DNA of 64,000 nt from Escherichia coli O127:H6 str. E2348/69 (GCF_000026545.1 NC_011601.1), one strand, 5' to 3'. Counted from the stretch's first letter, positions 3-17,831 are shown. Numbers and translations are program-made. The notes: generated from the sequence alone by a model not told the origin.

Positions 3-140
3 CAGTTCGGTGAGCGCGATCAGGTTGCGCCGGGCATTTTCACCGATTACCCGGTACGTGAGCTGCTGGGTATCAGCCAGGCAGATGAGCGCCTGATTTA
101 TAACACGGTGCTGGGCCGGATTGCGGAGGCTGTACGGTGA
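3..140 (+). CDS. tail completion protein (P2 gpS-like), C-terminal fragment; 5' end outside window
   Basis: Open frame running into window start, stop TGA overlapping GTG start of next gene (GTGA), position immediately upstream of gpV homolog. Confidence 0.45.
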   Translation, partial: QFGERDQVAPGIFTDYPVRELLGISQADERLIYNTVLGRIAEAVR

Positions 141-718
141 GCGCAGAACTCATGCGACTGCTGAGCAACATCATTCGCACCGGGATCATCTCTGAAGTTG
201 ATGAGAAGTCCTGGCGCGTGCGCGTTCGCAGCGGCGAACTGGAAACAGGCTGGCTGCGCTGGAACACCACGCGCGCGGGAGCCTTCAATGTGTGGCTGCC
301 GCCATCACCAGGCGAACAGGTGGTAATTGCCTGCATTGGCGGCAACCCGGAAACCGCCATGATAATTGGCAGCCTGTGGAGTGATGCTATTCCGGCCCCC
401 GGCAAAAGCCTGAAAGAAATCGTGGTCAGCGCGCCGGATGGCGCGGTGTTCCGCTACGACGCGGACGCAGGCGCACTGAGCGCCAGCGGCATGAAAACAG
501 CCACCCTGCAGGCATCCGTCAGCGTGACACTGGATACGCCCGTCGTGGAATGCACAGACCTTCTGAGAACGGCGACGCTTGACGTCACAAAAGGGGGAAA
601 GATGAGCGGCAATATCACGCACAGCGGCGGCAATTTCACCTCAAACGGCATCACAGTGCATACGCATAAACACGGTGGCGTTAAAGGTGGCAGCTATTCG
701 ACAGGAGGCCCGCAGTGA
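137..718 (+). CDS. baseplate assembly/spike protein, P2 gpV-like
   Basis: 193 aa ORF, GTG start, position and size match P2 V; followed by W-J-I. Confidence 0.8.
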   Translation: MSAELMRLLSNIIRTGIISEVDEKSWRVRVRSGELETGWLRWNTTRAGAFNVWLPPSPGEQVVIACIGGNPETAMIIGSLWSDAIPAPGKSLKEIVVSAPDGAVFRYDADAGALSASGMKTATLQASVSVTLDTPVVECTDLLRTATLDVTKGGKMSGNITHSGGNFTSNGITVHTHKHGGVKGGSYSTGGPQ

Positions 719-1065
719 CAACCCGCTACACAGGAATGAACCCGGACGGAACGGGAAACCTGAACGATATGGAGCACCTGAAACAGTCAGTCAGGGACAT
801 CCTGACCACCCCGCTGGCAAGCCGGGTTATGCGACGGGAATATGGCAGCCTTGTGCCTGATTTGATTGACGAACCCATGAATAACACCACGCGTCTGCAA
901 TGCATGAGTGCTGCCGTGATTGCGCTGACACGATGGGAACCCCGCATTGCCCTGGACGCTATCGACGTTGTCTGGAAGGCAGGAGGCCGCGCCGGGGTGA
1001 CGCTGTCGGGCACTGTCATGCAGACCATGCAGAATGTTGAATTAACCATCACGCTGAGAGAGTAA
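715..1065 (+). CDS. baseplate protein, P2 gpW-like (GPW/gp25 family)
   Basis: 116 aa ORF overlapping V stop; size and order typical of P2 W. Confidence 0.8.
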   Translation: MTTRYTGMNPDGTGNLNDMEHLKQSVRDILTTPLASRVMRREYGSLVPDLIDEPMNNTTRLQCMSAAVIALTRWEPRIALDAIDVVWKAGGRAGVTLSGTVMQTMQNVELTITLRE

Positions 1066-1068
1066 ATC

Positions 1069-1965
1069 ATGCCTGCTGTTGACCTTTCCCAGTTACCGGA
1101 ACCCGCCATCATCGCGGAGCCTGATTTTGAGGCAATTCTGGCTGACACAAAGGCCATGATGATTGCGTCCTATCCTGCCGAACAGCGTGAAGCCGTCTCC
1201 GCCGCGCTGGAGCTGGAATCGGAACCCCTGAACGTTATCGCTCAAACCATGTCTTTTCGTGAAATGCTGTTACGCCAGCGGGTTAACGAGGGCGCTCGCG
1301 CCTGCATGTTAAGCCACGGTTCAGGGACAAACCTGGACAACCTCGCGGGCAATATGAACACAAAGCGCCTGGTTATCACTCCGGCAACGGATACCACCGA
1401 CGCGGTGATGGAGAGTGACACCTCGCTGAGATTGCGGGCGCAACGGGCGTATGACGGCCTGAGTGTTGCTGGTCCGTCAGGTGCATACGAGTATTTTGCA
1501 CGCAGCGCCAGCGGTCTGGTGCGTGATGCGCGGGCCATCAGCCCGTCTCCGGCCTGTGTGACGGTTTCCATCCTGTCCACTGAAGGCGACGGCACAGCAA
1601 CGGAGGCGTTGCTTAATACCGTTCGCGCCGTTCTGAATGCAGAGGATACCCGCCCGGTGGCCGACCGCCTGACCGTACAGAGCGCCAGAATCGTGACATG
1701 GCGGCTGAATGCAAAACTGTACTTTTACCCCGGCCCGGAATCCGAACCTATTCTGGCCGCGGCTGAATCGTCGTTCAGGAAGTGGCTGGCTGAGCAGGGG
1801 CTTATCGGTCAGGACGTGGCGTTGTCCGCCATTGCTGCCGCACTGCATGTGCACGGTGTGCAACGCGTGGAGATAATCGAACCCACACAGAATATGGCCA
1901 TCAGCGACATACAGGCGGCGCGCTGTGAGTCATTCACCATCAGCGAAGGTGGACGCAATGAGTAA
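1069..1965 (+). CDS. baseplate assembly protein, P2 gpJ-like
   Basis: 298 aa ORF (P2 J about 300 aa), in V-W-J-I-H order. Confidence 0.8.
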   Translation: MPAVDLSQLPEPAIIAEPDFEAILADTKAMMIASYPAEQREAVSAALELESEPLNVIAQTMSFREMLLRQRVNEGARACMLSHGSGTNLDNLAGNMNTKRLVITPATDTTDAVMESDTSLRLRAQRAYDGLSVAGPSGAYEYFARSASGLVRDARAISPSPACVTVSILSTEGDGTATEALLNTVRAVLNAEDTRPVADRLTVQSARIVTWRLNAKLYFYPGPESEPILAAAESSFRKWLAEQGLIGQDVALSAIAAALHVHGVQRVEIIEPTQNMAISDIQAARCESFTISEGGRNE

Positions 1966-2566
1966 TTCGTTGTTACCACCATCAGCCAGCAATTTCATGC
2001 GTTGTGCCGAAGCCGTCGGAACACGCATTACAGACATTCCGGTAGACCTCAACACGCTGTGGTCGCCGGACACCTGCCCGGTGCATCTGCTGCCTTATCT
2101 CGCCTGGGCATTTTCCGTTGACCGCTGGGATCGCAACTGGCCGGAAGAGACAAAGCGACAGGTGATTCGTGATGCATGGCTGATACACCGACACAAAGGG
2201 ACCATCAGCGCACTGCGAAGAGCCGTGGAGCCTCTCGGCTACCTGATTGAAGTAAAGGAGTGGTGGCAACTCAACGAGGAACCGGGAACATTTCGCATTG
2301 TTGTCGGAGTACTTGATCAGGGCATCACCGATGAAATGTATCAGGAACTTGAGCGCCTTATTGCGGATGCAAAACCAGTAAGTCGCCATCTGACGGGGCT
2401 GGCGATCAGCCTGAGTGTGAACGGAAAGATTTTCGTTGGTACGGGATGCTATCACGGCGATGCCCTGACGGTTTATCCCTACACCCCGGAGTCCATTATT
2501 GTCGAAGGGGATTATTTCCCTGCCCCAGCCATTCATTTAATTGATAATCTGAGAGTAAACGCATGA
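1958..2566 (+). CDS. tail protein, P2 gpI-like
   Basis: ORF 1925..2566; in-frame ATG at 1958 overlaps J stop; size and position match P2 I. Confidence 0.75.
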   Translation: MSNSLLPPSASNFMRCAEAVGTRITDIPVDLNTLWSPDTCPVHLLPYLAWAFSVDRWDRNWPEETKRQVIRDAWLIHRHKGTISALRRAVEPLGYLIEVKEWWQLNEEPGTFRIVVGVLDQGITDEMYQELERLIADAKPVSRHLTGLAISLSVNGKIFVGTGCYHGDALTVYPYTPESIIVEGDYFPAPAIHLIDNLRVNA

Positions 2567-4128
2567 CAGTGAAATACTACGCCATTCTGACTAATCAGGG
2601 CGCGGCACGACTGGCTAACGCGACGATGCTCGGCAGTAAGCTGAATCTGACGCAAATGGCCGTTGGTGATGCAAATGGTGTGTTACCAACACCAGACCCT
2701 GCACAAACAAAACTGATTAACCAGAAACGCATTGCACCGCTGAATCTTCTGAGTGTTGACCCTAACAATCAGAGCCAGATTATTGCGGAGCAAATCATCC
2801 CTGAAAACGAGGGAGGATTCTGGATCCGTGAGATTGGTCTTTATGATGATGAAGGTGTACTCATTGCGGTGGCAAACTGCCCGGAAACGTACAAACCGCA
2901 GTTGCAGGAAGGCAGTGGACGCACCCAGACTATCCGCATGATTCTGGTTGTCACGAACACCGAAGCCATCACGCTGAAAATCGACCCGTCTGTGGTTCTG
3001 GCAACCCGCAAATATGTGGATGATAAAATCTCAGAGCACGAACAGTCACGACGTCACCCGGACGCCTCGCTGACCGTAAAAGGTTTTACTCAGTTAAGCA
3101 GTGCAATTAACAGTGAATCAGAAACACTGGCCGCAACACCGAAAGCGGTTAAGGCTGCATATGACCTGGCTAACGGGAAATATACCGCCCAGAACGCCAC
3201 CACTACACAAAAAGGAATTGTTCAGCTCAGTAGCGCCACGAACAGCACGTCTGAAACGCTGGCAGCGACACCAAAAGCTGTTAAGGCGGTAATGGATGAA
3301 ACGAACAAGAAAGCACCATTAAACAGCCCGGCACTGACCGGAACGCCAACAACACCAACAGCGCCACAGGGGACTAATAGTACCCAGATCGCAAGCACGG
3401 CTTTCGTTATGGCCGCGATTGCCGCACTTGTAGATTCGTCACCTGATGCACTGAACACGCTGAACGAACTGGCTGCGGCGCTGGGCAATGACCCGAATTT
3501 TGCGACCACCATGACTAACGCGCTTGCGGGTAAGCAACCGAAGGATGCCACCCTGACGGCGCTGGCAGAGCTTGCTACATCAGCAGATAAACTCCCATAT
3601 TTTACAGGGGCAGATCGTGCCGCGTTAACCGCGTTGACAAGTGTTGGACGTGCCATTCTTGGTAAAACCAGCACTCAGGGAGTTCTTGATTACCTTGGTT
3701 TGGGGGAAGGCTCTGCACTGCCCGTTGGTGTGCCCGTTCCGTGGTCCTCAGCAACACCACCAACGGGCTGGCTGAAATGTAACGGTGCAGCATTTTCTTC
3801 TGAAATGTATCCCAGACTGGCAAGGGCTTATCCCACCAATAAATTACCGGATTTACGCGGTGAATTTATCCGTGGCTGGGATGATGGGCGCGGGATTGAT
3901 GCGGGACGTACCCTGCTTTCAGGGCAGGATGGTACAAGTTTTTCTCATTACGGAGGTAATTTCGACATTGGGTCTGGTCATTCAATCAATAACTATGACC
4001 AAATTGTTTCTAACCAACCAGGCTTTTCCCGTTTTTCATTTGCAGGGCCTTCACGAGGTGATGGGGTTAATTATGTAACCATTCGTCCTCGTAATATTAC
4101 GTTTAATTACATCGTAAGGGCAGCATGA
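2563..4128 (+). CDS. tail fiber protein, P2 gpH-like (constant N-terminal part fused to C-terminal cassette A)
   Basis: 521 aa ORF; internal duplicated SETLAATPKAVKA motif typical of tail fibers; C-terminal 140 aa begin with the GLGEGSALPVGVPVPW repeat shared with two other cassettes. Confidence 0.85.
   Translation: MTVKYYAILTNQGAARLANATMLGSKLNLTQMAVGDANGVLPTPDPAQTKLINQKRIAPLNLLSVDPNNQSQIIAEQIIPENEGGFWIREIGLYDDEGVLIAVANCPETYKPQLQEGSGRTQTIRMILVVTNTEAITLKIDPSVVLATRKYVDDKISEHEQSRRHPDASLTVKGFTQLSSAINSESETLAATPKAVKAAYDLANGKYTAQNATTTQKGIVQLSSATNSTSETLAATPKAVKAVMDETNKKAPLNSPALTGTPTTPTAPQGTNSTQIASTAFVMAAIAALVDSSPDALNTLNELAAALGNDPNFATTMTNALAGKQPKDATLTALAELATSADKLPYFTGADRAALTALTSVGRAILGKTSTQGVLDYLGLGEGSALPVGVPVPWSSATPPTGWLKCNGAAFSSEMYPRLARAYPTNKLPDLRGEFIRGWDDGRGIDAGRTLLSGQDGTSFSHYGGNFDIGSGHSINNYDQIVSNQPGFSRFSFAGPSRGDGVNYVTIRPRNITFNYIVRAA
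3685..3710 (+). promoter_or_regulatory. putative invertase crossover site A (hix/gix-like) at start of cassette A
   Basis: Sequence ...ccttggtttgggggaagg... marks start of ~225 bp repeat; weaker dyad than site B. Confidence 0.4.
3695..3920 (+). repeat. repeat copy A (~225 bp, direct) encoding conserved N-terminal 75 aa of tail-fiber C-terminal cassette
   Basis: Near-identical to 4134..4360 (direct) and reverse complement of 5475..5696. Confidence 0.85.
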
Positions 4129-4149
4129 AAACGTTGGTTTGGGGGAAGG
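4124..4149 (+). promoter_or_regulatory. putative invertase crossover site B (hix/gix-like)
   Basis: catGAAAACgtTGGTTTggggg resembles the AAACC..GGTTT dyad of Hin/Gin sites as recalled; sits exactly at repeat boundary. Confidence 0.45.
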
Positions 4150-4360
4150 CTCTGCACTGCCCGTTGGTGTGCCCGTTCCATGGCCCTCAGCCACGCCGCC
4201 AACGGGATGGCTGAAATGTAACGGCGCAGCATTTTCTTCTGAAAAGTACCCAAAACTGGCAAGGGCTTACCCCACCAATAAATTACCAGACTTACGCGGT
4301 GAATTTATCCGTGGCTGGGATGATGGGCGAGGAATTGATGCGGCACGCGCTTTATTGAGC
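4134..4360 (+). repeat. repeat copy B (direct relative to A)
   Basis: Sequence identity with copy A visible by eye over about 225 bp. Confidence 0.85.
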
Positions 4361-4615
4361 ATTCAAAACGGGATGTTGGAAAAACACCGCCATATTGTTG
4401 TAGCTAACGATGGATATGACACAAAGGATGAATGGGAGTTGGCCACGATTTTCAAAAAAACATATACGCAAGGCAGGGGGCTTGATGCCACAAATACAGG
4501 AGGGAGTTTGATTCCATCACCAACGCTTCATTCACGAGGAAGTATTGGTAACACAGGTGGTAGTGAAACCCGCCCCCGCAATATTGCATTTAACTATATC
4601 GTGAGGGCGGCTTAG
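4139..4615 (+). CDS. alternative tail-fiber C-terminal cassette B (promoterless, lacks fiber N-terminus)
   Basis: 158 aa ORF begins MGEGSALPVGVPVPW and ends PRNIAFNYIVRAA, same architecture as C-terminus of gpH. Confidence 0.6.
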   Translation: MGEGSALPVGVPVPWPSATPPTGWLKCNGAAFSSEKYPKLARAYPTNKLPDLRGEFIRGWDDGRGIDAARALLSIQNGMLEKHRHIVVANDGYDTKDEWELATIFKKTYTQGRGLDATNTGGSLIPSPTLHSRGSIGNTGGSETRPRNIAFNYIVRAA

Positions 4616-4621
4616 TTATAT

Positions 4622-5233
4622 TCAACTGGCTGCTGCCAGTGGTATTTCCGGCAAGTTGATATCTGGTGCCATGTTTATATCCATTGCGTTCAGCGCGTCT
4701 ATATAATCCAGCACGGCATTAAGCCGGGTGGTTTCTGCCTGCGTCAACTTCCGCCCGGCCTGCAACTTCAACTGAATCAGACTTATGGAAGCCATTGCCG
4801 CATCAGCCAGTGACTGGCGCTTGGTTTCTGCCGCTTCTACTGCAGCACGATGTTGTGCCTCAGTATCTGTCACCCATTTTTCACCATCCCATTTATCGTA
4901 TGGTGTTAACGGGGCGATAGTGGTTGTATTTTTCGGGTAGTCACCCAGCGCCGTGATTTCTTCGGTGTTTCCCGTGTCAGTGCTATAGACGGTTTCACCA
5001 CGATGGTCTGGCGCATACTCCCATGAGCTTAAATTCTCCGAACGGCGGATAGCATAGCCCGCTTTATGTGCGCCCGGGGCATCTAAACAGGAATTTGCCG
5101 GAATACCGACACCCACAGCAAGATATTCAGTTGATTCGGAAATATATTCCCGTGTCTCACCATCATAGTTATAAACGACGATGTTTCCTGCCTGTACGGC
5201 AATAAGGTCATCATTTAATATCGCGTTATTCAT
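4622..5233 (-). CDS. tail fiber assembly protein (Tfa/gpG-like chaperone)
   Basis: 203 aa ORF immediately downstream of cassette C on minus strand; size and position typical of Tfa. Confidence 0.65.
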   Translation of the reverse strand: MNNAILNDDLIAVQAGNIVVYNYDGETREYISESTEYLAVGVGIPANSCLDAPGAHKAGYAIRRSENLSSWEYAPDHRGETVYSTDTGNTEEITALGDYPKNTTTIAPLTPYDKWDGEKWVTDTEAQHRAAVEAAETKRQSLADAAMASISLIQLKLQAGRKLTQAETTRLNAVLDYIDALNAMDINMAPDINLPEIPLAAAS

Positions 5234-5700
5234 TATGCGGTTCTCACAATATAATTGAAGGCAATATTGCGTGGGTGGGTTTCATTCCCCTCTGAGGATT
5301 CCGTTCTGTATTGACTGGTAAATCTACCGTTAATTGCACCTTGCCGGACGGCGTTATCTGTCGACAACAGACTATCCCCTCCTTTGTCATTTGGCACCAA
5401 CACCGTGTTATCCCACGCATCCCATGACCGAATATTATGATAATGACTTCCTGTTAACCACCCCTGCATGCTTAAGATGCCCCTTCCGGCATCCACCCCG
5501 CGCCCATCATCCCAGCCACGGATAAATTCACCGCGTAAATCCGGTAATTTATTGGTGGGGTAGGCCTTTGCCAGTTTTGGGTACATTTCAGAAGAAAATG
5601 CTGCACCGTTACATTTCAGCCACCCTGCTGGCGGTGTGGCTGAGGGCCACGGAACAGGTACACCAACGGGCAGTGCAGAGCCTTCCCCCAAACCAACGTT
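5233..5700 (-). CDS. alternative tail-fiber C-terminal cassette C (inverted orientation)
   Basis: Minus-strand frame encodes GLGEGSALPVGVPVPW...PRNIAFNYIVRTA; the annotated Met upstream is probably not a real start. Confidence 0.6.
   Translation of the reverse strand, partial: NVGLGEGSALPVGVPVPWPSATPPAGWLKCNGAAFSSEMYPKLAKAYPTNKLPDLRGEFIRGWDDGRGVDAGRGILSMQGWLTGSHYHNIRSWDAWDNTVLVPNDKGGDSLLSTDNAVRQGAINGRFTSQYRTESSEGNETHPRNIAFNYIVRTA
5475..5696 (-). repeat. repeat copy C (inverted relative to A and B)
   Basis: Reverse complement of copies A/B. Confidence 0.85.
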
Positions 5701-5706
5701 TTCGTT
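5681..5706 (-). promoter_or_regulatory. putative invertase crossover site C (hix/gix-like), inverted, about 60 bp upstream of invertase gene
   Basis: Reverse complement reads cgAAAACgtTGGTTTgggggaagg; position next to invertase as gixR is to gin in Mu. Confidence 0.45.
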
Positions 5707-5762
5707 TTTATCCCTACCTATACCAACTCTGTATTTTTCACGAAACAAAGAGGATGTTTTTT

Positions 5763-6362
5763 ATGCAAATTGGCTATATTCGTGTGTCAACAAATGACCA
5801 GAACACGGATTTACAACGCAATGCACTGAACTGCGCAGGATGTGAACTGATTTTTGAAGATAAAATCAGCGGAACGAAATCAGCCAGACCGGGATTGAAA
5901 AAACTGCTCAGAACGCTATCAGAAGGAGATACGCTGGTTGTCTGGAAGCTGGACAGACTGGGCAGAAGTATGAAACACCTGATCACGCTTATTGAGGAAT
6001 TGCGGGAAAAAGGTGTTAATTTCCGTAGTCTGACGGACAGCATTGACACATCAACACCCATGGGGCGTTTCTTTTTTCACGTCATGGGGGCTTTAGCCGA
6101 AATGGAACGTGAATTAATTGTAGAGCGTACACTGGCCGGGCTGGCAGCAGCACGCGCACAAGGACGCATTGGCGGACGTCGCCCGAAGTTGACAAAAGAA
6201 CAACACGAGCAAATAGCGAGGCTGATTAAAAACGGTCATGACAGGAAACAACTGGCGATCATTTACGACATCGGCATATCGACGATTTATCGTTATCACC
6301 CTGTAGGCGATATACAGGCTGAAGAAACAACCAGGCAGACTCAGGAAAATAAAAACCGCTAA
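5763..6362 (+). CDS. serine DNA invertase, Gin/Pin/Cin/Hin family
   Basis: N-terminus MQIGYIRVSTNDQNTDLQRNAL and internal VVWKLDRLGRSMKHLI, SLTDSIDTSTPMGRFFFHVMGALAEMERELI match Gin/Hin as recalled; C-terminal HTH region. Confidence 0.9.
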   Translation: MQIGYIRVSTNDQNTDLQRNALNCAGCELIFEDKISGTKSARPGLKKLLRTLSEGDTLVVWKLDRLGRSMKHLITLIEELREKGVNFRSLTDSIDTSTPMGRFFFHVMGALAEMERELIVERTLAGLAAARAQGRIGGRRPKLTKEQHEQIARLIKNGHDRKQLAIIYDIGISTIYRYHPVGDIQAEETTRQTQENKNR

Positions 6363-6384
6363 TCTGACCATTAGCGGTTTTGCG
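6349..6384. terminator. bidirectional hairpin between convergent invertase and gpU genes
   Basis: Inverted repeat accgctaat/attagcggt flanked by A-run on one side and T-rich on other. Confidence 0.45.
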
Positions 6385-6388
6385 TTAA

Positions 6389-6883
6389 TCAAAACAGCCC
6401 TTTAACGGAGCTGGCCGCGCTGTTAAGGGATGATGTGACCTTATCTTTGAAGCCGGACAGCATATCACTGAACGATGAGGATTGCAGGCGCTCCCGCAAA
6501 TCCTCATCACAGCGTTCAAGAGTCAGTGAAAATTCTATCTTTTTCGCCTTACCGTAGCGATCAAACTCGGAACGGGTCGTATTCGTTTCAGTCAGTACAT
6601 ACATGCCGTAAATCTGCCCGACACCATCAATCAGAGGCCAGGGGCGTCCTGTATATGCCTGCGTGGTCAGCAACGAAAGCGACACTTCGCCACCTGTAAT
6701 TTCAGGATAAAGCACGCCGGAAAGCACGATGCGATCATCACCTGCGCCGATATACTGCCAGCTTGCTGAACGGTTAACGCGTTCATTTTTCACATGCCGC
6801 CAGCTTTTGTTTTGCTGTAACTGCTGATGCGGCAATGTGCGCAGCTCAAAAACAAACATGCCGTAGATCATCATCATGGCCAT
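6389..6883 (-). CDS. tail protein, P2 gpU-like
   Basis: 164 aa ORF directly downstream of tape measure gene; size and order match P2 U. Confidence 0.75.
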   Translation of the reverse strand: MAMMMIYGMFVFELRTLPHQQLQQNKSWRHVKNERVNRSASWQYIGAGDDRIVLSGVLYPEITGGEVSLSLLTTQAYTGRPWPLIDGVGQIYGMYVLTETNTTRSEFDRYGKAKKIEFSLTLERCDEDLRERLQSSSFSDMLSGFKDKVTSSLNSAASSVKGLF

Positions 6884-6889
6884 GACTCC

Positions 6890-9733
6890 TCAATCTTTAT
6901 CGTAAAAACTGCCACGTCCGGCACGGTCGCGTCGTTCCAATTCTGCCCTGACCATTTCACCGACCAGTTTCGCCAGTTTGCGGGGATTCTGCGTAACAAC
7001 GTTATGCAGATGAACATGAATTTCACCGCCAAATCCGGAGACAACAGGCTCCCGGTTACGGGAAGTTGCAGGAACTGATGCCACTGGCGATCGTATGGCC
7101 TCCGCCACCGGGCGGGAGCTGGCCGCAACAACAGGGACCAGCGCCGGAGGCAGAGGAGTCGGGACCACGGGTGTGATGTTGATTGCGGAAGCAGGCTTAC
7201 TGACCTGCGCAATCTTCCGCTCCTGCCACTCCCCACGAACAGCAAGTGCGCGGGGCAGATTCTTAAAGACAATATCGCCGGGGCCAATGCGTTTTTTCGT
7301 CTCATCAACCAGCTTACCTGTGTTATCAGCAATTTTGCTGAGTCTGCGTAGCGTACCGGTATTGCTGTCTGTGAGCGGTTTGTTGTCTTTGGGTTTATCA
7401 CCTCCGGTGCCATTGCCATTTTCCACAGGCTTCGGCGGATTGATTTTCGCCAGGTCCCCCTGAAGCAAGGCAACCTTGTCCTGAAGAATGGCCGCACGCT
7501 GTGCGTCTTCGATTTTCTTGCGCGCCCTTTCCGCTTCATCCGGAAGGACGCCAAGTTTTTCAAGTATCCACGCCAGCGTATCCAGTAGCATTTTTGCAGG
7601 CGTCAGAACAAGTTGTAACGCACCGCCAAGAACGTTACCGAATATCTCGCCAGCACTGGTACATTTATCCAGCGTTTCCTTGCTGGACTCCATCGGTGAC
7701 AGCAGCGATTTAAACCAGTTAAACACCTGGCTGATCCCGCTTCCGATTGCGTCAAAAACAGGACCAAACCGTTCAAAGGTTTCGCGCAACGGGGCCAGCC
7801 TTTCCATAATCCCGCTGAACACCCCGGCAAAAAATGCCCTGATGGGATCCCAGTATTTCCAGATAAGAACGGCAGCTCCGGCAAGTGCAGCCACGATAAG
7901 ACCAACCGGACTGAACAGCGCCCCGATAGCGCCTCCCAGTAAAGAAACGGAACCCGTCACCATTCCCCATAGTGCTGGCAGGACCCTGACAGCATTCATT
8001 GATCCGGTCAGGAGAGAAAAACCAAGACGCAGTTTTGCCAGCGGACCAGCAAGCACACCAATAGCCAGCGACAACGAGCCAACCGTTGCAGTCATTGCCA
8101 GCAACGCACCGCCTGCTATCAGTAGCTGGCGCGTCAGTGCCGGATGGGCCTGCGCCAGCGCCGTCACCCTTGATACCACCCGCGTGAGCCACTGCGTGAC
8201 AGAACGCAGCGGACCGTCAATCAGATCTGCAATGCGGATGCGCAACCCTTCCCATGCACTGCCGAGTGATTTCAGATCGCCGTCAAGGTTGTTGGCCATA
8301 ACCTTTGCTGTGCGTTCAGCCTCACCGCGCGCGCCTTCAAGTTCTTTTCTCAGTTTGGGTAAGGAACCGTCACCCGCTGCATCAACGAGCGCCATAAACG
8401 ATGTGAAAGCCTCTTCTCCGGCAATGTCCTTAAAGAACGATACCCGGTCAACTTCCCCGTATTTGCGGGTGGCTTTATAAAGGTCGGCCAGCACATCCTC
8501 CATCGGGCGCATTTTGCCCCCGGCATCCGAGACGGACACGCCCAGCTCTTTCAGAGCTTCTGCCGCCGCCTTTGGCGGTGATGCCAGACGAGCCAGGCTG
8601 GCACGCATTGCCGTCCCGGCATCACTCCCTCTGATGCCCATATTCGCCAGCACGCCAGCCATCGCTGCGGCCTGCTCCAGCGATATTCCCAGCTTACCCG
8701 CCACCGGACCTGCATATTTCATGGTTTCGCCCAGTGCGCGAAGGTCAGTGTTGGTACGGGTAAACGCTGCGGTGAGTGTGTCACCGACCCGGTCCATCTG
8801 GTCAGCAGAAAGGCCGAACTGCGTCAGGATATTTGAGCCAATATCTGCCGTCTCGCCGAGATCCATACCGCCAGCCGTTGCCATGCTCAGCACTCCGGGA
8901 AGCGCAGCCTGAATGGCCTGCGGTGTGAAGCCAGCCATTGCAAGAAATGCCTGCCCACTGGCGGCATCGCCTGCGGTGAACTGCGTTTCAGAGCCAAGTT
9001 TTAACGCCTGCTCACGCAGCGCCTTAAACTGCGGGCTGTTCTGGTCGATTCGCGTCAGCGCCTGAACGCGGGACATCTCTTTGCCGAACCCGATCGCGGG
9101 CTGCAAAAAACGCCCGGCAGCATAGCCGCCCGCCGCTGCCGCACCAATTGCCAGCGCACCACCTGTTTTCAGTTTTCCCGCGGTTTCCTGCGCGCGCGAA
9201 TACCGCTCACGCGCCCGCGTTACACGCGCAAGCGCCTGCCGTTCGCGTTCAAGCTGGTTGTTGTACTGTTCGGTGCGTCTGATGGCCTGCTGGATGGTGT
9301 TATCGCTGCCTGTCAGGGAAATGCCGTGGCGTTTCAGCTCTCCGCCAAGTTCCCGCATTTTCTGAATTTCCCGTGTGCGCGATTCATTCAGGCGTTCAAG
9401 CCGGGTGCTTAACTGCTGCATCAGCTTTTGTTGTTTTTCGCTGAGCACTGTACCCGTGCGTTGTAACTGATTAAGAGCGTTAAGCTGGCGTCGTGCTTTC
9501 AATATGCCAGCATCCGCTTTACTGACAGCGTCACGGGCGCGCTCAAATGAACGCGCCTGACGCTCGAGATTTTTGATCGCCCCCTGCGTTCGCTGGATGG
9601 AGTCACCAAACTGCCCCATCAGGCGGCGGGCGTTTTCGGCAGGCCGGGTCAGCCTGTCAACGGCGCTGAAAGCGACCCGGATATCAAGAGTCTTCATTGT
9701 CTGTATTCCCGCTGCGAAGTGCCGCCCGCTCAC
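6890..9733 (-). CDS. tail tape measure protein, P2 gpT-like (start uncertain: GTG 9733 or ATG 9697)
   Basis: 947 aa ORF, Ala/Gly-rich with hydrophobic segments, follows E/E' as in P2. Confidence 0.8.
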   Translation of the reverse strand: MSGRHFAAGIQTMKTLDIRVAFSAVDRLTRPAENARRLMGQFGDSIQRTQGAIKNLERQARSFERARDAVSKADAGILKARRQLNALNQLQRTGTVLSEKQQKLMQQLSTRLERLNESRTREIQKMRELGGELKRHGISLTGSDNTIQQAIRRTEQYNNQLERERQALARVTRARERYSRAQETAGKLKTGGALAIGAAAAGGYAAGRFLQPAIGFGKEMSRVQALTRIDQNSPQFKALREQALKLGSETQFTAGDAASGQAFLAMAGFTPQAIQAALPGVLSMATAGGMDLGETADIGSNILTQFGLSADQMDRVGDTLTAAFTRTNTDLRALGETMKYAGPVAGKLGISLEQAAAMAGVLANMGIRGSDAGTAMRASLARLASPPKAAAEALKELGVSVSDAGGKMRPMEDVLADLYKATRKYGEVDRVSFFKDIAGEEAFTSFMALVDAAGDGSLPKLRKELEGARGEAERTAKVMANNLDGDLKSLGSAWEGLRIRIADLIDGPLRSVTQWLTRVVSRVTALAQAHPALTRQLLIAGGALLAMTATVGSLSLAIGVLAGPLAKLRLGFSLLTGSMNAVRVLPALWGMVTGSVSLLGGAIGALFSPVGLIVAALAGAAVLIWKYWDPIRAFFAGVFSGIMERLAPLRETFERFGPVFDAIGSGISQVFNWFKSLLSPMESSKETLDKCTSAGEIFGNVLGGALQLVLTPAKMLLDTLAWILEKLGVLPDEAERARKKIEDAQRAAILQDKVALLQGDLAKINPPKPVENGNGTGGDKPKDNKPLTDSNTGTLRRLSKIADNTGKLVDETKKRIGPGDIVFKNLPRALAVRGEWQERKIAQVSKPASAINITPVVPTPLPPALVPVVAASSRPVAEAIRSPVASVPATSRNREPVVSGFGGEIHVHLHNVVTQNPRKLAKLVGEMVRAELERRDRAGRGSFYDKD

Positions 9734-9947
9734 GCCAGCTAACCACTTCGCCGGGAGTCATCATGAAGATTTCGGCGGGCGACCAGTTAAAAATGGTGGC
9801 AATATCCGCCACCAGATCTTCGATGTGCTCAAAGCACACCAGGGTGATTACGCTGCCGTCTCCTGCACGCTCTTCGCGCCAGAGTCTGGCTCGCTCATAA
9901 AATTTACAGCCACAGCGCACAACTGAATAAAATCGCGTGACGACATT
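9684..9947 (-). CDS. gpE' extension, expressed as E+E' fusion by programmed -1 frameshift
   Basis: Overlapping frame downstream of an A-run (ttaaaaaaatg) inside E; C-terminus ...NTDNEDS typical of E+E'. Confidence 0.5.
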   Translation of the reverse strand, partial: NVVTRFYSVVRCGCKFYERARLWREERAGDGSVITLVCFEHIEDLVADIATIFNWSPAEIFMMTPGEVVSWRERAALRSGNTDNEDS

Positions 9948-10222
9948 TTTTTAATCATCACTTCATCCAGTTGTGGCGAGGTCACGCGAGGCAACAGCGT
10001 GAACATGGTATCCGCTTTCAGATTCAGCACATCAGACAGCGACAGACCACGCAGGGATCCCGCCTGCTCAATAGCCCCGGTGATCTCCACATATGTGATT
10101 TTTTCGGCACCACGCTCAATTGGCCGGGAAAGTTTTACACCACGTTCGACAGCCATATCCTCACCTGCCGTCACATCATCCGCTACGGTGTTATTCCGGG
10201 TTTCAGTATCGATATTTTTCAT
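9848..10222 (-). CDS. tail assembly chaperone, P2 gpE-like
   Basis: ORF between FII and T; N-terminus MKNIDTETRNN; paired with overlapping E' frame. Confidence 0.7.
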   Translation of the reverse strand: MKNIDTETRNNTVADDVTAGEDMAVERGVKLSRPIERGAEKITYVEITGAIEQAGSLRGLSLSDVLNLKADTMFTLLPRVTSPQLDEVMIKKMSSRDFIQLCAVAVNFMSEPDSGAKSVQETAA

Positions 10223-10277
10223 CAGTTGTCTCCTTTTCAGTCAGAGGCGACGCACTGCGCCGCCTGCATATTACTTA

Positions 10278-10790
10278 TCAGCCAAGCCCGAGCGCGGAAC
10301 GGATGCGATCGGGCACAATGTCCTTGCCGTCCTTCCGGTAAATGAAGTTCAGCAGGTCAATCTCCCACAACGGACGATCGTTAACACTCAGCTTGTAGTA
10401 GGTGTTTTTAATGGCGTAAGTGTGTGATGTGGCTTCGCCCTGTTTGGCTTCCCCCATATCAATTTCCGTCACACGTCCGCGCATTTCGACTTCATACAGG
10501 TCGCTTTCTGCATCGGTGTAATATTCACCCGCAAAACGCAGCAGCGTGCCGTCAATCGTGCCGCCATACTTAAGGAACAGCTCACGAACTGCGCCCCCCA
10601 TGACAAAGCTCGCATCAAGCGCGGAGTCGTCCAGACCGAGATCAATACTTACCGCCCCCATCATGCCACCACCCCGGTAGCTGTCGGTTTTGCGCGTCAG
10701 CTTAGGCAGGGTGACGGACGTCACCTTACCCACTTCGTTTTCACCATCCACAAACAGCGTAAAAAAGCGAAGATGTTTTGGCACAGCCAT
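10278..10790 (-). CDS. tail tube protein, P2 gpFII-like
   Basis: 170 aa ORF directly downstream of sheath gene. Confidence 0.8.
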   Translation of the reverse strand: MAVPKHLRFFTLFVDGENEVGKVTSVTLPKLTRKTDSYRGGGMMGAVSIDLGLDDSALDASFVMGGAVRELFLKYGGTIDGTLLRFAGEYYTDAESDLYEVEMRGRVTEIDMGEAKQGEATSHTYAIKNTYYKLSVNDRPLWEIDLLNFIYRKDGKDIVPDRIRSALGLG

Positions 10791-11974
10791 CAGGCACCTC
10801 CCAGCACCGCAAATGCGGGTTCAAAGTATTCATCAGTAAACGTCTGGTAAAGCTCCATGTCTTCCAGTGGCGGAACGGGCGTATATTTGTAGCGAATACG
10901 CACACGCCCCTGACGTAAATCCGTGGTGCTGTTATCCACCACGTCATACCAGCACTCCGCGCCAATCAGTTTCCCGGCAGTCACCAGTGAATCCAGTTTT
11001 GCCCTGATGGCACTGATAACATCCTTCACGTTCGCAGGCGTCAGTGGACTGTCGATGGTTTCAAACTGCGCTTCCGCAATTGAATCAGCCAGCACCTGTG
11101 CGGTTCGGGTATACACCTCAAAGATGTAGGCGTTCGTTTCCGGTGTGCGGTTGCCCCAGAAGCGGAACCCGTTGCGACGAATAATGGTCGTGATTTCTTT
11201 GTTGTTGAGGCTGTTGGCATCGCTGTCTTCGGCCTGCAACGACCAGAACACATGCCTCGACATCCCCAGCACATTTTTAACCGGAACGTTGGACAGTGAT
11301 TTGTGCCAGCCCTGCTCATGGTCAATGTACGCACGAAGGCCGCACGCATAGGCAGGCGCGGGGAACGTTTCGTTTTTGCCACTTTTCGGGTTGTAGGCGA
11401 TGAAGTCCGGCCATAAGAGCATCACCTCACGTTCGTTGAATTTCTGGCGGTAGGTAATCGCATCAGCCATCGTGTCACAGCCATGACATGAGGCATACAC
11501 AAACGCGCGCAGTTTACCCGCAATCACGCACAGGGATTTTGTCACCGCCTCCGTGTCCAGCTCCGGCGCGGCCAGAATACGCGGACGGTATCCGATGCTT
11601 TCATCCTGCTCTGCAACAAGCAGCGCATACATCCCCGTATAGCTGCCGTCAGATTCAGAACCACCGATAACCAGTTGATCCTGCGTCTTTCCGTCTTCTT
11701 CTTTGTGTTCAGCCACGCGAACGACGATCACCTTTGTGCTCACCTGGTCTGCGATAGCCTTAAGCGCACGATAAAGCGTCCCCGTTGTCCCGCATTTTCC
11801 CAGCACGTCATTGACGCGGGTCAGCAGTGTGGGCTTGTTCAGCGGGAACAGCTTCGCGTCCGCATCATCCGCCGTTGCCACGATACCGATAACACTGGAA
11901 TCAACATCATTAATCGCTGTTACCAGGTCGGTATTTTCCGTAACACGGGCACCATGAAAACGAGTTTCACTCAT
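10790..11974 (-). CDS. contractile tail sheath protein, P2 gpFI-like
   Basis: About 394 aa from internal Met MSETRFHG of 452 aa ORF; position before FII. Confidence 0.8.
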   Translation of the reverse strand: MSETRFHGARVTENTDLVTAINDVDSSVIGIVATADDADAKLFPLNKPTLLTRVNDVLGKCGTTGTLYRALKAIADQVSTKVIVVRVAEHKEEDGKTQDQLVIGGSESDGSYTGMYALLVAEQDESIGYRPRILAAPELDTEAVTKSLCVIAGKLRAFVYASCHGCDTMADAITYRQKFNEREVMLLWPDFIAYNPKSGKNETFPAPAYACGLRAYIDHEQGWHKSLSNVPVKNVLGMSRHVFWSLQAEDSDANSLNNKEITTIIRRNGFRFWGNRTPETNAYIFEVYTRTAQVLADSIAEAQFETIDSPLTPANVKDVISAIRAKLDSLVTAGKLIGAECWYDVVDNSTTDLRQGRVRIRYKYTPVPPLEDMELYQTFTDEYFEPAFAVLGGA

Positions 11975-12131
11975 AGCTTCAGCCCCTTGTATCCGTAAAA
12001 TGATTCGGCAACAATCATCACCCACCACGCGCGTAATCTCACCCCTGCGCCGTTCTCCCGACCCGGCGACAACAAAAAGCAGTAACCCCCTCCGCACGCA
12101 CATGCGACCATGCCGCACAGGGAGGGAACAG

Positions 12132-13232
12132 ATGACCGATACCACCATGCAATTGCTCAGTCAGGGCACAGACCCCGTGAAAATGCCGGATTTTGATATT
12201 CTCGCGGAGGGTAAAACGCTGTCAGGCGTGGCAGAGCGCCTGATGAGCCTGTCACTGACCGACAACCGGGGATTTGAGGCGGACCAGCTCACCATCACGC
12301 TGGATGATGCGGATGGTCAGTTGCAGCTACCGCCACGGGGCGCGCGCCTGACGGTTCTCATTGGCTGGAAAGGAGAACCGCTGACAGAAAAAGGCACTTA
12401 CATTGTTGATGAAATCGCTCACGAAGGACCGCCGGACAGGCTGACTGTTTCAGCCAGAAGCGCAGATTTTCGGGATGAATTTAACGTTAAACGTGAGGTG
12501 TCCTGGCATGATGTGACCGTTGAGCGCGTGGTATCTGCCATCGCTCATCGGTACGGTCTGAAACCGCAAATCAGCGAAATACTGATGGATATCGAAATCG
12601 ACCACGCCGACCAGACCGAAGAAAGCGACATGTCCTTCCTTACGCGCATGGCGGAAATGCTGGGCGCAATCACCACGGTAAAAAGCGGTAATCTGTTATT
12701 CATCATGCCAGGCGGTCGCGTGAACGCACTGGGCCAGCCGTTGCCATCGTTCGCCATCACACGCAGCAGCGGCGATCGCCATCAGTTCCGCATTGCTGAC
12801 CGCGAGGCGTATACGGGTGTACGCGCCTACTGGCTTGATCTTAATTACGGGAAAAAGAAAAAAGTCAGCGTGAAACGCCGCAAACCGAAAAAAGAGAAAA
12901 GCAGCAGCCGTGAAGGTGACTATATGGAAGGTGCGGAAGGCAACGTGTTTGTGTTACGCAAAACTTATCAGAACGAGCAGGCAGCAAGACGCGCAGCGGC
13001 GGCAAAATGGCAGCAGCTACAACGCGGAGCCGCATCATTTTCCATCACGCTGGCACGTGGACGAGCAGAACTCTACCCCGAAATGCATGGCACGGTAACA
13101 GGATTTAAAAGCGAGATTGATAATCAGGACTGGATCATTGCAAAAGCCGAGCACACCATTGATAACAGTGGCTTTACCACGCAGCTTGAGCTTGAAGCCA
13201 AAATCCCGGAATGGATAGCAGAAACAGAGTAA
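12132..13232 (+). CDS. tail protein, P2 gpD-like
   Basis: About 366 aa from MTDTTMQLL; lysine-rich linker; precedes ogr as in P2. Confidence 0.75.
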   Translation: MTDTTMQLLSQGTDPVKMPDFDILAEGKTLSGVAERLMSLSLTDNRGFEADQLTITLDDADGQLQLPPRGARLTVLIGWKGEPLTEKGTYIVDEIAHEGPPDRLTVSARSADFRDEFNVKREVSWHDVTVERVVSAIAHRYGLKPQISEILMDIEIDHADQTEESDMSFLTRMAEMLGAITTVKSGNLLFIMPGGRVNALGQPLPSFAITRSSGDRHQFRIADREAYTGVRAYWLDLNYGKKKKVSVKRRKPKKEKSSSREGDYMEGAEGNVFVLRKTYQNEQAARRAAAAKWQQLQRGAASFSITLARGRAELYPEMHGTVTGFKSEIDNQDWIIAKAEHTIDNSGFTTQLELEAKIPEWIAETE

Positions 13233-13426
13233 ACAACTTAGATGCATTAGCCCTGACATTTGCTAACGCGCTTACAGCAAGAATCATAACCAATCTGACA
13301 GCCTACCCGGTGTCAAAATCAGAAGAGCCTTACATTAGAATATGTTAATTTGTAGCAAACAAATTTACACACAAATGATTACTGCTGAAATAGCCCCCAT
13401 AAATGCCATGTCAAAGGATCCATGTT

Positions 13427-14092
13427 ATGAATATGCAAATTTTTATCGCACCAGCAGCCACAGTTGCTGCAGTCTGCCTTGCTGCATATTTTGCTTTACG
13501 AAATGAACGTAAAAAGAAAGCACTTGAGATTAGAACAACTCAACTAGATCGAATATCTGAGCTAGTAAACCGAGCATCTACCAATTTGATGCAATATACA
13601 GGTACTCTTGCCTCTATACTGGAAGCGCACGCCAAAGATAATTATCTACCGAACAAAAAATTTGACATTAATGTAATTAGCAAATGGAAAGATTGCCTCG
13701 ATGAGAGTGAGGTCTGGGCGATTGATATACAGCAACTAAGAACATGTCAGCACAGTCTGGAGTTTCATCGTGAAAAAGAATGGGCTGAATGGAAAAAAAT
13801 AATTCCACCATTACTTGATAAAATTAACCAATTTTTTCTCATATCTAAGCCAGGGCAACCTGTTACGTTTATAAATGGCCAAAACAAAACAGCTGATGAA
13901 CTACTTGTTTTCTCAAGATATTTGAGAAAACAAACAGCAGAAATTGAATCAGTACGTCAGCTGTTACTTTCTCAAATGAGAGAGGAATTCATCGAGTTAA
14001 CTAGCTTTGAACCTGTCACAATGTTTAGCTTATTTAAATCAATAAAGAAAAATGTCATGCAATTTTTCTGTATCAGTGCTCTTAAAAATTGA
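13427..14092 (+). CDS. hypothetical membrane-anchored protein (N-terminal TM helix), AT-rich insert between D and ogr
   Basis: 229 aa ORF (13403..14092; likely start 13427 or 13433); hydrophobic N-terminus IFIAPAATVAAVCLAAYFAL then charged helical region; markedly lower GC than flanking phage genes. Confidence 0.55.
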   Translation: MNMQIFIAPAATVAAVCLAAYFALRNERKKKALEIRTTQLDRISELVNRASTNLMQYTGTLASILEAHAKDNYLPNKKFDINVISKWKDCLDESEVWAIDIQQLRTCQHSLEFHREKEWAEWKKIIPPLLDKINQFFLISKPGQPVTFINGQNKTADELLVFSRYLRKQTAEIESVRQLLLSQMREEFIELTSFEPVTMFSLFKSIKKNVMQFFCISALKN

Positions 14093-14241
14093 CGCTCTGT
14101 TGCAAGCAACCCCAGTGTTAAACTGGGGTTATTCTTGCTAAGAGACCTTTCTACGGCATCAGTAAACAAAACGAACTATCAGTTGGAGTCTGAGCAAGTT
14201 CAGCCTAAACTAGCGACAGCACTACGTTAAGGGAGGTCGCT

Positions 14242-14502
14242 ATGTTCCGTTGTCCGCTTTGTGGCGCATCTGCCCGTATCCGCACCAGTCGTCCGGAAAA
14301 TGATTCAAACACCGTGCGGCAAAAGTATTACCAGTGTAACAACCTGGAATGCGGCGTATGCTTCTCAACACTGGAAGCTTTCCATAAATTCACATCGAAA
14401 CACGCCTCCGGCATCCACTCTTCAGAAGGTATCCCGTGGCATGAGCTGCCAGCTTCACACAGGGGAAACAATCAGATGAGCTTGCCTTTACCTCAGAATT
14501 AA
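14242..14502 (+). CDS. ogr: late gene transcriptional activator, Ogr/Delta zinc-finger family
   Basis: N-terminus MFRCPLCGASARIRTSR...YYQCNNLECG with Cys-x2-Cys...Cys-x4-Cys pattern as in P2 Ogr; 86 aa, longer than the ~72 aa recalled for P2. Confidence 0.8.
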   Translation: MFRCPLCGASARIRTSRPENDSNTVRQKYYQCNNLECGVCFSTLEAFHKFTSKHASGIHSSEGIPWHELPASHRGNNQMSLPLPQN

Positions 14503-14562
14503 CAGGCAGAATTGCCGGAGTAACAAAAACGCGATAGATTACGCGCGGGTGCCTTTCGGCTG

Positions 14563-14775
14563 ATGGTCGGAGGGAATACCCGAAGGCCAGATGTGGAAAG
14601 GCCCCGGAAAACATCTCTGTTTAACCGAGGCCCTAACCGCATTACCTTGACAAGTGAAAGGTTAGCGCCTCTCCGGAAAAGGAGCAAGTGCTATGTCGCA
14701 AAAATCGCTTACGGCCATCACGTTCTGCGTGACGGCAATCCTCATCATCTGGATGTTGCACGGTTCGCTGTGTGA
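14563..14775 (+). CDS. mok-like overlapping reading frame of hok-family locus
   Basis: 70 aa ORF in different frame overlapping the hok-like ORF, as mok overlaps hok in plasmid R1. Confidence 0.4.
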   Translation: MVGGNTRRPDVERPRKTSLFNRGPNRITLTSERLAPLRKRSKCYVAKIAYGHHVLRDGNPHHLDVARFAV

Positions 14776-14833
14776 AATACGGATGAGCTTCTGGGGAGCG
14801 GAGTTTGCGGCGTTCTTACAGTGTAAGCAGTAA
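14693..14833 (+). CDS. Hok/Gef-family type I toxin (small membrane peptide)
   Basis: 46 aa: MSQKSLTAITFCVTAILIIWMLHGSLCEIRMSFWGAEFAAFLQCKQ; TM segment followed by SLCEIR and E(V/F)AAF motifs of Hok; good SD (aaaaggag) upstream. Confidence 0.75.
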   Translation: MSQKSLTAITFCVTAILIIWMLHGSLCEIRMSFWGAEFAAFLQCKQ

Positions 14834-14917
14834 GGAAACCGCGACGGGGGAGCAATCCCCCGTCAATCGGTTGCCAGGGTAAGGTCGATAAGGCACCCTA
14901 TCTCACAGACATGAACA

Positions 14918-14952
14918 ACAAACCCGCAGCATAAAAACTGCGGGTTTTCTTT
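14918..14952 (+). terminator. rho-independent terminator downstream of hok-like gene
   Basis: aaacccgcagcataaaaactgcgggttttcttttt hairpin plus T-tract. Confidence 0.6.
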
Positions 14953-15099
14953 TTGGTGTCCTCACCGACTTGAAACAGTGATCAGACTATAAGACAAAGC
15001 CCACAATGTAGCGGGCTTACTCCCCTCCCCCCACTAAATGTGGACGCATCGTGGAACGAAGAGATATAAAACATTATAAATCAATTAGTTATTGAAAGA

Positions 15100-15132
15100 A
15101 AAAAGGCCGCAGAGCGGCCTTTTTAGTTAGAT
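15100..15132 (-). terminator. rho-independent terminator of pheST-ihfA operon
   Basis: aaaaaggccgctctgcggccttttttc on minus strand just after ihfA stop. Confidence 0.7.
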
Positions 15133-15136
15133 CAGA

Positions 15137-15436
15137 TTACTCGTCTTTGGGCGAAGCGTTTTCGACCCGGCTTTTTAACTTCTGCCCGGGTCTGAAGGTC
15201 ACCACGCGCCGTGCTGTAATGGGAATATCCTCGCCCGTTTTCGGGTTACGTCCCGGGCGTTGATTCTTATCACGCAGATCGAAGTTACCAAAACCAGAGA
15301 GTTTCACCTGTTCGCCGTTTTCCAGAGCGCGACGGATCTCTTCGAAAAACAGTTCAACCAGTTCTTTGGCATCCCGCTTGCTAAGCCCAAGCTTATCAAA
15401 CAGATATTCTGACATTTCAGCTTTTGTAAGCGCCAT
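15137..15436 (-). CDS. ihfA: integration host factor alpha subunit
   Basis: 99 aa [33 protein letters not shown]... matches IHF-alpha. Confidence 0.95.
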
Positions 15437-15440
15437 AGGT

Positions 15441-17831
<2,391 letters not shown>

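Follow-up and report, generated by a model that had tools for sequence, protein, structure and literature searches.

The window, by which we mean the whole stretch of 64,000 nt of the E. coli E2348/69 chromosome that was analysed, opens with part of a P88-like prophage adjoining ihfA. According to the E2348/69 annotation, the right end of this P2-family prophage meets ihfA-pheT; the window begins within the prophage, at gene V, and holds its right-hand ~15 kb. Genes were called from an open reading frame (ORF) listing together with PHROG searches. The genes V, W, J, I, and H (137-4128), identified as ORFs with family assignments, are located on the plus strand and are followed by tail-fibre C-terminal cassettes and one tail-fibre assembly gene (4139-5748), and then by a plus-strand gene for a serine DNA invertase of the Hin/Gin/Pin type (5763-6362; PHROG 125 DNA invertase, E=5e-100), which the E2348/69 annotation names "recombinase family protein".

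The reading frames that come next are all on the minus strand. By increasing coordinate, they encode a gpU-like tail protein (6389-6883; PHROG 76, E=5e-75; 99-100% identity to P88 and phiSM), the gpT tape measure protein of 935 aa (6890-9697; PHROG 28, E=8e-217; equal in length to that of P88 and 98% identical to it), an E' reading frame (9684-9839; annotated as a GpE family tail protein in both E2348/69 and P88), a gpE-like tail assembly chaperone (9848-10222; PHROG 103, E=3e-36), the gpFII tail tube protein (10278-10790; PHROG 55, E=8e-60, labelled "head closure" in PHROGs and major tail tube in relatives), and the gpFI tail sheath protein of 394 aa (10790-11974; PHROG 23, E=3e-128; 99% identity to P88). 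A slippery heptamer, A AAT TTT, at 9899-9905 on the minus strand links E to E', as read from the sequence in both frames, and, by analogy with the E/E' pair of P2, E' is probably reached from E by a -1 frameshift at this heptamer.

Beyond FI, a divergent spacer of 157 bp (11975-12131), with predicted back-to-back late promoters, leads to the plus-strand gene D (12132-13232; PHROG 52, E=2e-164; 99% identity to P88), which encodes gpD, a late control D or baseplate hub-like tail protein of 366 aa. D is followed by a plus-strand ORF of low GC content (13403-14092), to which no function was assigned and for which no match was found in PADLOC, NCBIfam, or PHROGs. The next plus-strand gene (14242-14502) encodes an Ogr/Delta-like zinc-finger late activator, the translation of which contains a CX2C-X24-CX4C motif; it was assigned through PHROG 603 and is listed in RefSeq as "Ogr/Delta-like zinc finger protein", and its NCBIfam match to PRK09678 (E=2e-11) is under the curated cutoff. 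It is followed by a hok/gef toxin gene, also on the plus strand.

With homologues of FI, FII, E with E', T, U, and D (PHROG E values from 3e-36 to 8e-217), the locus contains a contractile-tail module of the Peduoviridae (P2-like phages), but not in the canonical organisation of the P2 P_F operon, given the opposite strands of FI through U (minus) and of D (plus), which lies beyond the 157 bp divergent spacer. The P_F operon of P2 and of Yersinia phage L-413C has seven tail proteins in common with the window (D 49%, FI 45% identity), and likewise includes the E/E' frameshift arrangement and goes with an Ogr-family activator. In P2, however, these genes all run in one direction with U next to D, whereas in the window FI through U face away from D, and D must have a promoter of its own. 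This arrangement had been pointed out in a preliminary description of the locus, and all of its coordinates for U, T, E/E', FII, and FI (6389-11974) on the minus strand amid plus-strand neighbours were confirmed by the ORFs and the PHROG matches, as were, in the sequence, the gaps of 26 bp between the stop codons of the invertase gene and U and of 157 bp between the start codons of FI and D. The co-directional order FI-FII-E-E'-T-U-D with U abutting D, given there as the P2 type, is indeed seen in L-413C, Cartapus, and ST512-KPC3phi13.2.

Distribution of the inverted gene order

A megablast search of positions 4000-14800 of the window against phage genomes yielded matches to, among others, P88, Xuanwuvirus P884B11, and Citrobacter phage phiSM; these are collinear with the query, with an identity of 92-96%, from the invertase up to the last position of the query. 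In the annotated genomes of P88 and phiSM, the invertase is on the plus strand, U, T, E, FII, and FI are on the minus strand, and D is on the plus strand. From V through ogr, P88 (Xuanwuvirus P88; NC_026014) and phiSM (OR565851) have the same gene order and strands as the window, with 94.6-95.9% nucleotide identity over the matched 75% of positions 4000-14800. They differ from it in the tail-fibre C-terminal cassettes and in the content of the invertible segment, and they lack the low-GC ORF that the window has between D and ogr. The nucleotide identity of 94.6% to P88 over 75% of the 10.8 kb query and the identical synteny, as seen in the right-hand ~15 kb of the prophage, suggest that it may belong to the genus Xuanwuvirus.

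The same layout was found in more distant phages. D and FI were searched by tblastn against 50,697 phage records, and their strands and positions were compared within each record. FI was adjacent to D and divergent from it in 47 of the 48 records with a D identity of at least 62%; in the 48th, Klebsiella CP052639.1, the 5' end of FI still lies beside D, but the record is otherwise rearranged. Altogether, the inverted layout spans five ICTV genera of the Peduoviridae, namely, Xuanwuvirus, Novemvirus (Enterobacter phiT5282H), Reginaelenavirus (Klebsiella 3LV2017 and Kp4871-3), Reipivirus (Kp4847-1 and ST16-OXA48phi5.4), and Senquatrovirus (Salmonella SEN4/5), and is also present in Serratia phage KSP20. 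Among the IMG/VR loci retrieved with the D protein, minus-strand FI adjoins plus-strand D in 82 of 82, with the invertase present or absent, and SEN5, T5282H, and many Xuanwuvirus loci have the inverted order with no invertase gene at the U junction. The next-nearest phages, in which D is 49-55% identical (Kapieceevirus, Elveevirus Cartapus, and Peduovirus L-413C), have the canonical order, in which the genes are co-directional and U abuts D, and the inverted phages are monophyletic in a neighbour-joining tree of D comprising 10 taxa. The distribution over genera, the canonical outgroups, the grouping in the D tree, and the members without an invertase therefore point to one old, inherited inversion. 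As compared with P2, the block represents an old inversion that defines the lineage and is present in already published genomes, and the minus-strand order U-T-E'/E-FII-FI is very probably the normal, inherited gene order of a P2-like (Peduoviridae) clade. The ancestor of this clade would have inverted a segment carrying the late promoter P_F together with FI through U, with one breakpoint upstream of P_F and the other between U and D.

The layout is also frequent among E. coli chromosomes. The two junctions of the block match E. coli E2348/69 at 100% identity. The 701 bp FI-D junction was present at a coverage of at least 80% in 1354 of the 5426 complete E. coli genomes (~25%). A control representing the canonical junction was constructed from the 3'-terminal 351 nt of U, in sense orientation, and the first 351 nt of D; at least one of its halves occurred in 1412 genomes, at a median of two separate places per genome, and the two halves were joined in 0 of the 5426. 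Thus, the orientation of the FI-U block is fixed, and the block does not flip. The preliminary description was right in that a block of ~5.6 kb with P_F and FI-U is inverted compared with P2 and that D has been separated from it, and comparison with related P2-like genomes showed the block to be inverted with respect to the canonical phages and collinear with the P88-like phages. None of the three causes that it had proposed, namely, a prophage-inactivating rearrangement, an invertase-mediated event, and an assembly artefact, agrees with the results. Related intact phages sharing the order would, by its own account, speak against its reading; such phages exist. An artefact, or an event confined to this strain, is contradicted by the FI-D junction, which is present in a quarter of the complete E. 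coli genomes and in all close relatives examined. Complete genomes obtained independently and phage genomes sequenced from virions agree across several laboratories and sequencing platforms, which leaves misassembly with a negligible probability.

Every gene in the window has its full length, and the identity to P88 is 97-100%, the exception being E, which shows 73% identity to P88 and 97% to phiSM. In length, each gene of the block equals its P88 counterpart, and the identity to P88 amounts to 98-100% for U, T, FII, FI, and D, so that nothing in the sequence of the block suggests decay of the prophage. P88 was induced with mitomycin C, formed plaques, and was sequenced from phage DNA (PMC5285337); SEN4/5 form plaques and have myovirus morphology (PMC5261728); and phiSM forms plaques and lysogenises K-12 (PMC6456863). 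The tail of phiSM was described as non-contractile by electron microscopy (PMC6456863), which conflicts with the sheath gene in its genome, and because of this description the case for a working contractile tail is weaker from phiSM than from P88 or SEN4/5. These observations bear on the proposal that a strain-specific inversion inactivated the prophage by orphaning D from its promoter. The contrast with the P2 gene order is the one point in its favour; the abundance of the junction in E. coli, the equal gene order in plaque-forming phages (PMC5285337, PMC5261728), the intactness of all genes, and a conserved promoter-like layout upstream of D (see below) make it extremely improbable. For genome annotation, this means that in P88-like prophages, present in roughly one out of four complete E. 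coli genomes, minus-strand FI-U beside plus-strand D should be read neither as decay nor as misassembly. We found no paper on the inverted order, and the papers on P88 and SEN4/5 are silent on inversion or orientation.

The invertase and the U-side junction

The invertase gene is adjacent to an invertible tail-fibre segment (3695-5699), which lies between inverted repeats at 3692-3906 and 5485-5699; a third copy of the repeat, in direct orientation, is located at 4127-4365. The ORFs within the segment encode tail-fibre C-terminal ends and a tail-fibre assembly protein. In the region from 2500 to 12400, the only long inverted repeats are those at 3692-3906, 4127-4365, and 5465-5703 (215-239 nt, 89-92% matching), all of them in the tail-fibre region. 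Compared with another E2348/69 assembly, CP059840.2, the window differs only by the inversion of 3695-5699 (99.95% identity). The tail-fibre segment has repeats at its ends, a neighbouring invertase, and two observed orientations, and thereby resembles the Hin/Gin/Cin/Pin segments, in which a serine invertase likewise lies beside a repeat-bounded segment. Because the repeats are found only there, and because of the inversion seen in CP059840.2, ordinary tail-fibre switching accounts for the substrate of the enzyme: the tail-fibre segment is a real invertase substrate, and it is outside the 5.6 kb block. By contrast with the Hin/Gin/Cin/Pin segments, the FI-U block has no flanking inverted repeats and occurs in one orientation only, the opposite junction being found in none of the 5426 genomes, against 1354 with the observed one.

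The adjacent Hin/Gin/Pin-type invertase might nevertheless have flipped the block at secondary sites, or might flip it still, as the preliminary description had considered. The distance between the end of the invertase gene and the block is 26 bp, and the enzyme appears to be active, given that the orientation of the tail-fibre segment differs between assemblies of one strain. We consider such an event highly improbable. The ends of the block are not paired by inverted repeats, and the search of the two junctions that had been proposed in the preliminary description yielded no repeat pairing 6363-6389 with 11975-12131. Moreover, the opposite orientation of the block is absent from the complete E. 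coli genomes, and SEN5, T5282H, and many Xuanwuvirus loci, which have no invertase gene at the junction, share the order. The invertase may conceivably have had a role in the single ancestral event, but nothing supports this. The enzyme would have no substrate other than the tail-fibre segment to its left.

Between the invertase gene and U, the 26 bp gap and the last bases of the invertase gene together form a hairpin, AAAAACCGCTAAT-ctgacc-ATTAGCGGTTTT (6352-6381), which the terminator scan reported as a minus-strand hit with 12 pairs. The hairpin is bordered by a run of A at one end and a run of T at the other and could therefore terminate both convergent transcripts. This predicted bidirectional intrinsic terminator would separate the invertase gene from the end of U, towards which it is transcribed.

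The FI-D spacer and its predicted late-activator dyad

The length of the FI-D spacer (153-157 bp) is conserved in four genera. P2 late promoters are Ogr-dependent and have the consensus TGT-N12-ACA, as summarised in PMC3931495 with reference to Christie and Calendar (1985) and Julien and Calendar (1995). An exact search for TGT-N12-ACA found no site in the spacer of the window, and a dyad in this spacer, GTTCT-N12-ACAAC (12052-12073; core TCT-N12-ACA at 12054-12071, centred at 12062.5), was recognised as a one-mismatch version only after the spacers had been compared across genera. This predicted P2-type late-activator (Ogr/Delta family) dyad has five of the six core bases of TGT-N12-ACA and is the sole site in the spacer within one mismatch. 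At the homologous position, the match to TGT-N12-ACA is exact in SEN5 (GTTGT-N12-ACAAT), Kp4871-3 (GTTGT-N12-ACAAC), and CP052639, and P88 and phiSM have the identical 157 bp spacer with the same dyad. One-mismatch sites are common by chance, at ~0.5 per 157 bp; therefore, the case for the dyad rests on its conserved position and not on the match itself. The dyad is the single conserved island in the alignment of the spacers across four genera, a comparison of lineages that are related to one another, in which the extended dyad motif was defined after the sites had been seen.

In P2, the late-promoter dyad is centred near -55. In seven of seven FI-D spacers, which represent five genera and one unclassified Klebsiella record, nAnnAT hexamers are located 44-49 nt (within 1 nt) from the centre of the dyad on both sides, that is, where a -10 element would be expected with the dyad at -55 in either direction. 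In the window, the predicted -10 hexamers are GATGAT for P_F (12014-12019, minus strand) and GACCAT for the D promoter (12106-12111, plus strand), each 44-49 nt from the dyad centre, and five lineages have D-side hexamers at the identical offset (GACCAT, GACGAT, AACCAT, AATCAT, and GATCCT). A scan of the spacer for sigma-70 consensus promoters found none, as expected for activator-dependent promoters. The dyad centre is 68.5-76.5 nt from the D start codon and 81.5-88.5 nt from the FI start codon. The latter distance is similar to that of the P_F dyad from FI in canonical phages (78.5-85.5 nt), and P2 and L-413C likewise have a TGT-N12-ACA-type dyad ~80 nt upstream of the FI start codon (PMC3931495). 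This similarity fits a promoter that moved together with its operon.

The preserved spacing also bears on the question whether the resident genes were inverted or a foreign FI-U module was acquired by recombination in the opposite orientation. Tail modules are mosaic among P2-like phages, and Smp131 has other rearrangements of its tail genes (PMC3931495), both of which would be in line with an acquired module. However, the divergence from the canonical phages is alike inside the block (FI 45-49%, FII 42-48%, and U 46-48% identity) and outside of it (V, W, J, and I 41-60%, D 49-52%). The sole gene well under the range of the others is T, with 24-37% identity. Likewise, the canonical distance between the dyad and the FI start codon fits a resident promoter and operon that turned round. 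Because of the similar divergence inside and outside the block, T excepted, and of the preserved dyad-FI spacing, a simple inversion appears more economical than the insertion of a foreign module, which we regard as improbable.

In the proposed mechanism, the Ogr-type dyad would have travelled with the inverted block and would now lie in the middle of the ~155 bp spacer, ~55 nt upstream of the leftward FI-U promoter and ~55 nt upstream of the rightward D promoter. From the sequence comparison, we infer that one Ogr-type site probably serves divergent promoters for FI-U and for D. We lean, with some reserve, towards the broader reading that a single palindromic Ogr-type site is a bidirectional element for P_F and the D promoter, and that the inversion was tolerated because the inverted symmetric site could activate D at once. 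Alternatively, the layout could be typical of the lineage, with D being transcribed from an activator-independent promoter or from a second, unrecognised site and not from the shared dyad. The imperfect dyad in the window and the weak match of GACCAT to the -10 consensus would be compatible with such a promoter. On the other hand, there is one candidate site per spacer, and the symmetric geometry is conserved in the seven FI-D spacers and mirrored in the P-O spacer described below, so that a D promoter independent of the dyad seems rather unlikely.

If one shared site indeed serves both directions, the layout suggests that a late operon can be split by inversion, with its regulation being kept, because the activator site is symmetric, and the clade would offer a naturally evolved case of an operon that an inversion has divided around such a site. 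We found no paper commenting on such a reading of a shared symmetric site in P88-like phages. The genomes with this gene layout are already public, and the inferred shared activator site is the only, mildly new element.

The divergent P-O spacer

The arrangement proposed for the FI-D spacer would mirror that of another divergent spacer of the same prophage, located between the terminase (P) and scaffold (O) genes. This ~155 bp spacer contains one GTTCT-N12-ACAAC dyad, that is, the extended motif of the FI-D spacer, at distances of 73.5 and 81.5 nt from the start codons on either side. The hexamers TAATCT and CATCAT are located at the same offset as in the FI-D spacer, ~46 nt on each side of the dyad. 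Judging from these shared sequence features, the capsid-gene spacer appears to operate like the FI-D spacer. In the P2-type phage L-413C, the P-O spacer contains no plausibly placed site, the lone one-mismatch match being 9.5 nt from the O start codon. The P_P/P_O region of P2-like phages resembles the FI-D region in its ~155 bp divergent spacer, its central dyad, and its -10-like hexamers ~46 nt on each side; unlike the FI-D region, it controls packaging and capsid genes, and its existence is independent of any rearrangement. For the P2-like phage Smp131, a shared TGT-N12-ACA site has been proposed for the divergent promoters P_P' and P_O' (PMC3931495).

The invertible tail-fibre segment

The invertible tail-fibre segment (3695-5699) has opposite orientations in the window and in CP059840.2, another assembly of strain E2348/69. 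Three repeat copies were identified in the region of this segment (3692-5748), two of them direct (3692-3906 and 4127-4365) and the third inverted (5465-5703). The sole tail-fibre assembly gene in this region (4622-5233) is located on the strand opposite to H, and the ORF at 4139-4615 looks like a third C-terminal cassette that has been stranded. In the orientation present in the window, H (2563-4128) carries a terminal cassette that lacks a co-oriented tail-fibre assembly gene.

A motif copy within T and an ORF between D and ogr

The extended motif GTTCT-N12-ACAAC, the predicted dyad of an Ogr/Delta-type late activator, has one copy in each of the FI-D and P-O spacers and a third at 7612-7633 (minus strand) within the tape measure gene T, on the coding strand of T. 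For the extended motif, about 0.3 matches per 40 kb are expected by chance, and the copy in T may represent either a chance occurrence or an internal late promoter.

Between D and the ogr-like gene, the plus strand contains an ORF (13403-14092) whose predicted product of 229 aa has a hydrophobic N-terminus. The GC content of the stretch harboring this ORF is about 40%, compared with about 55% nearby. No match was found in PHROGs, PADLOC, or NCBIfam, and the ORF is present in just 9 of the 82 related loci, that is, IMG/VR viral contigs retrieved with the D protein. Possibly, it is a cargo or exclusion gene occupying a variable spot.

The right prophage end and the region beyond

Close to the right end of the prophage, immediately ahead of ihfA, a Hok/Gef (MokW-like) toxin gene is encoded on the plus strand (14693-14833). 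At 15051-15195 (minus strand), Rfam identifies a match to STnc540, an enterobacterial sRNA (41.3 bits versus a gathering score of 38); the match overlaps the 3′ end of ihfA together with downstream sequence and adjoins the prophage junction. Past thrS, at about 22978-23763 (plus strand), the E2348/69 annotation lists a frameshifted pseudogene of a ShET2/EspL2-family type III effector.

Database records of related phages

CP052639.1, a 32 kb linear Klebsiella pneumoniae record ("plasmid unnamed"), is a P2-like phage genome entered as a plasmid. In this record the sheath gene is broken in two: the 5′ part adjoins D, while the 3′ part is found on the opposite strand at a distance of about 2 kb. 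The split reflects either misassembly or an additional rearrangement. In OR565851.1 (Citrobacter phage Shae_phiSM), the GenBank product names appear to be off by one gene across 13024-15475: the sheath gene is labeled "late control gene D protein", whereas "ogr" is the name given to D. This phiSM genome encodes a sheath gene despite the tail having been described as non-contractile by electron microscopy (PMC6456863).
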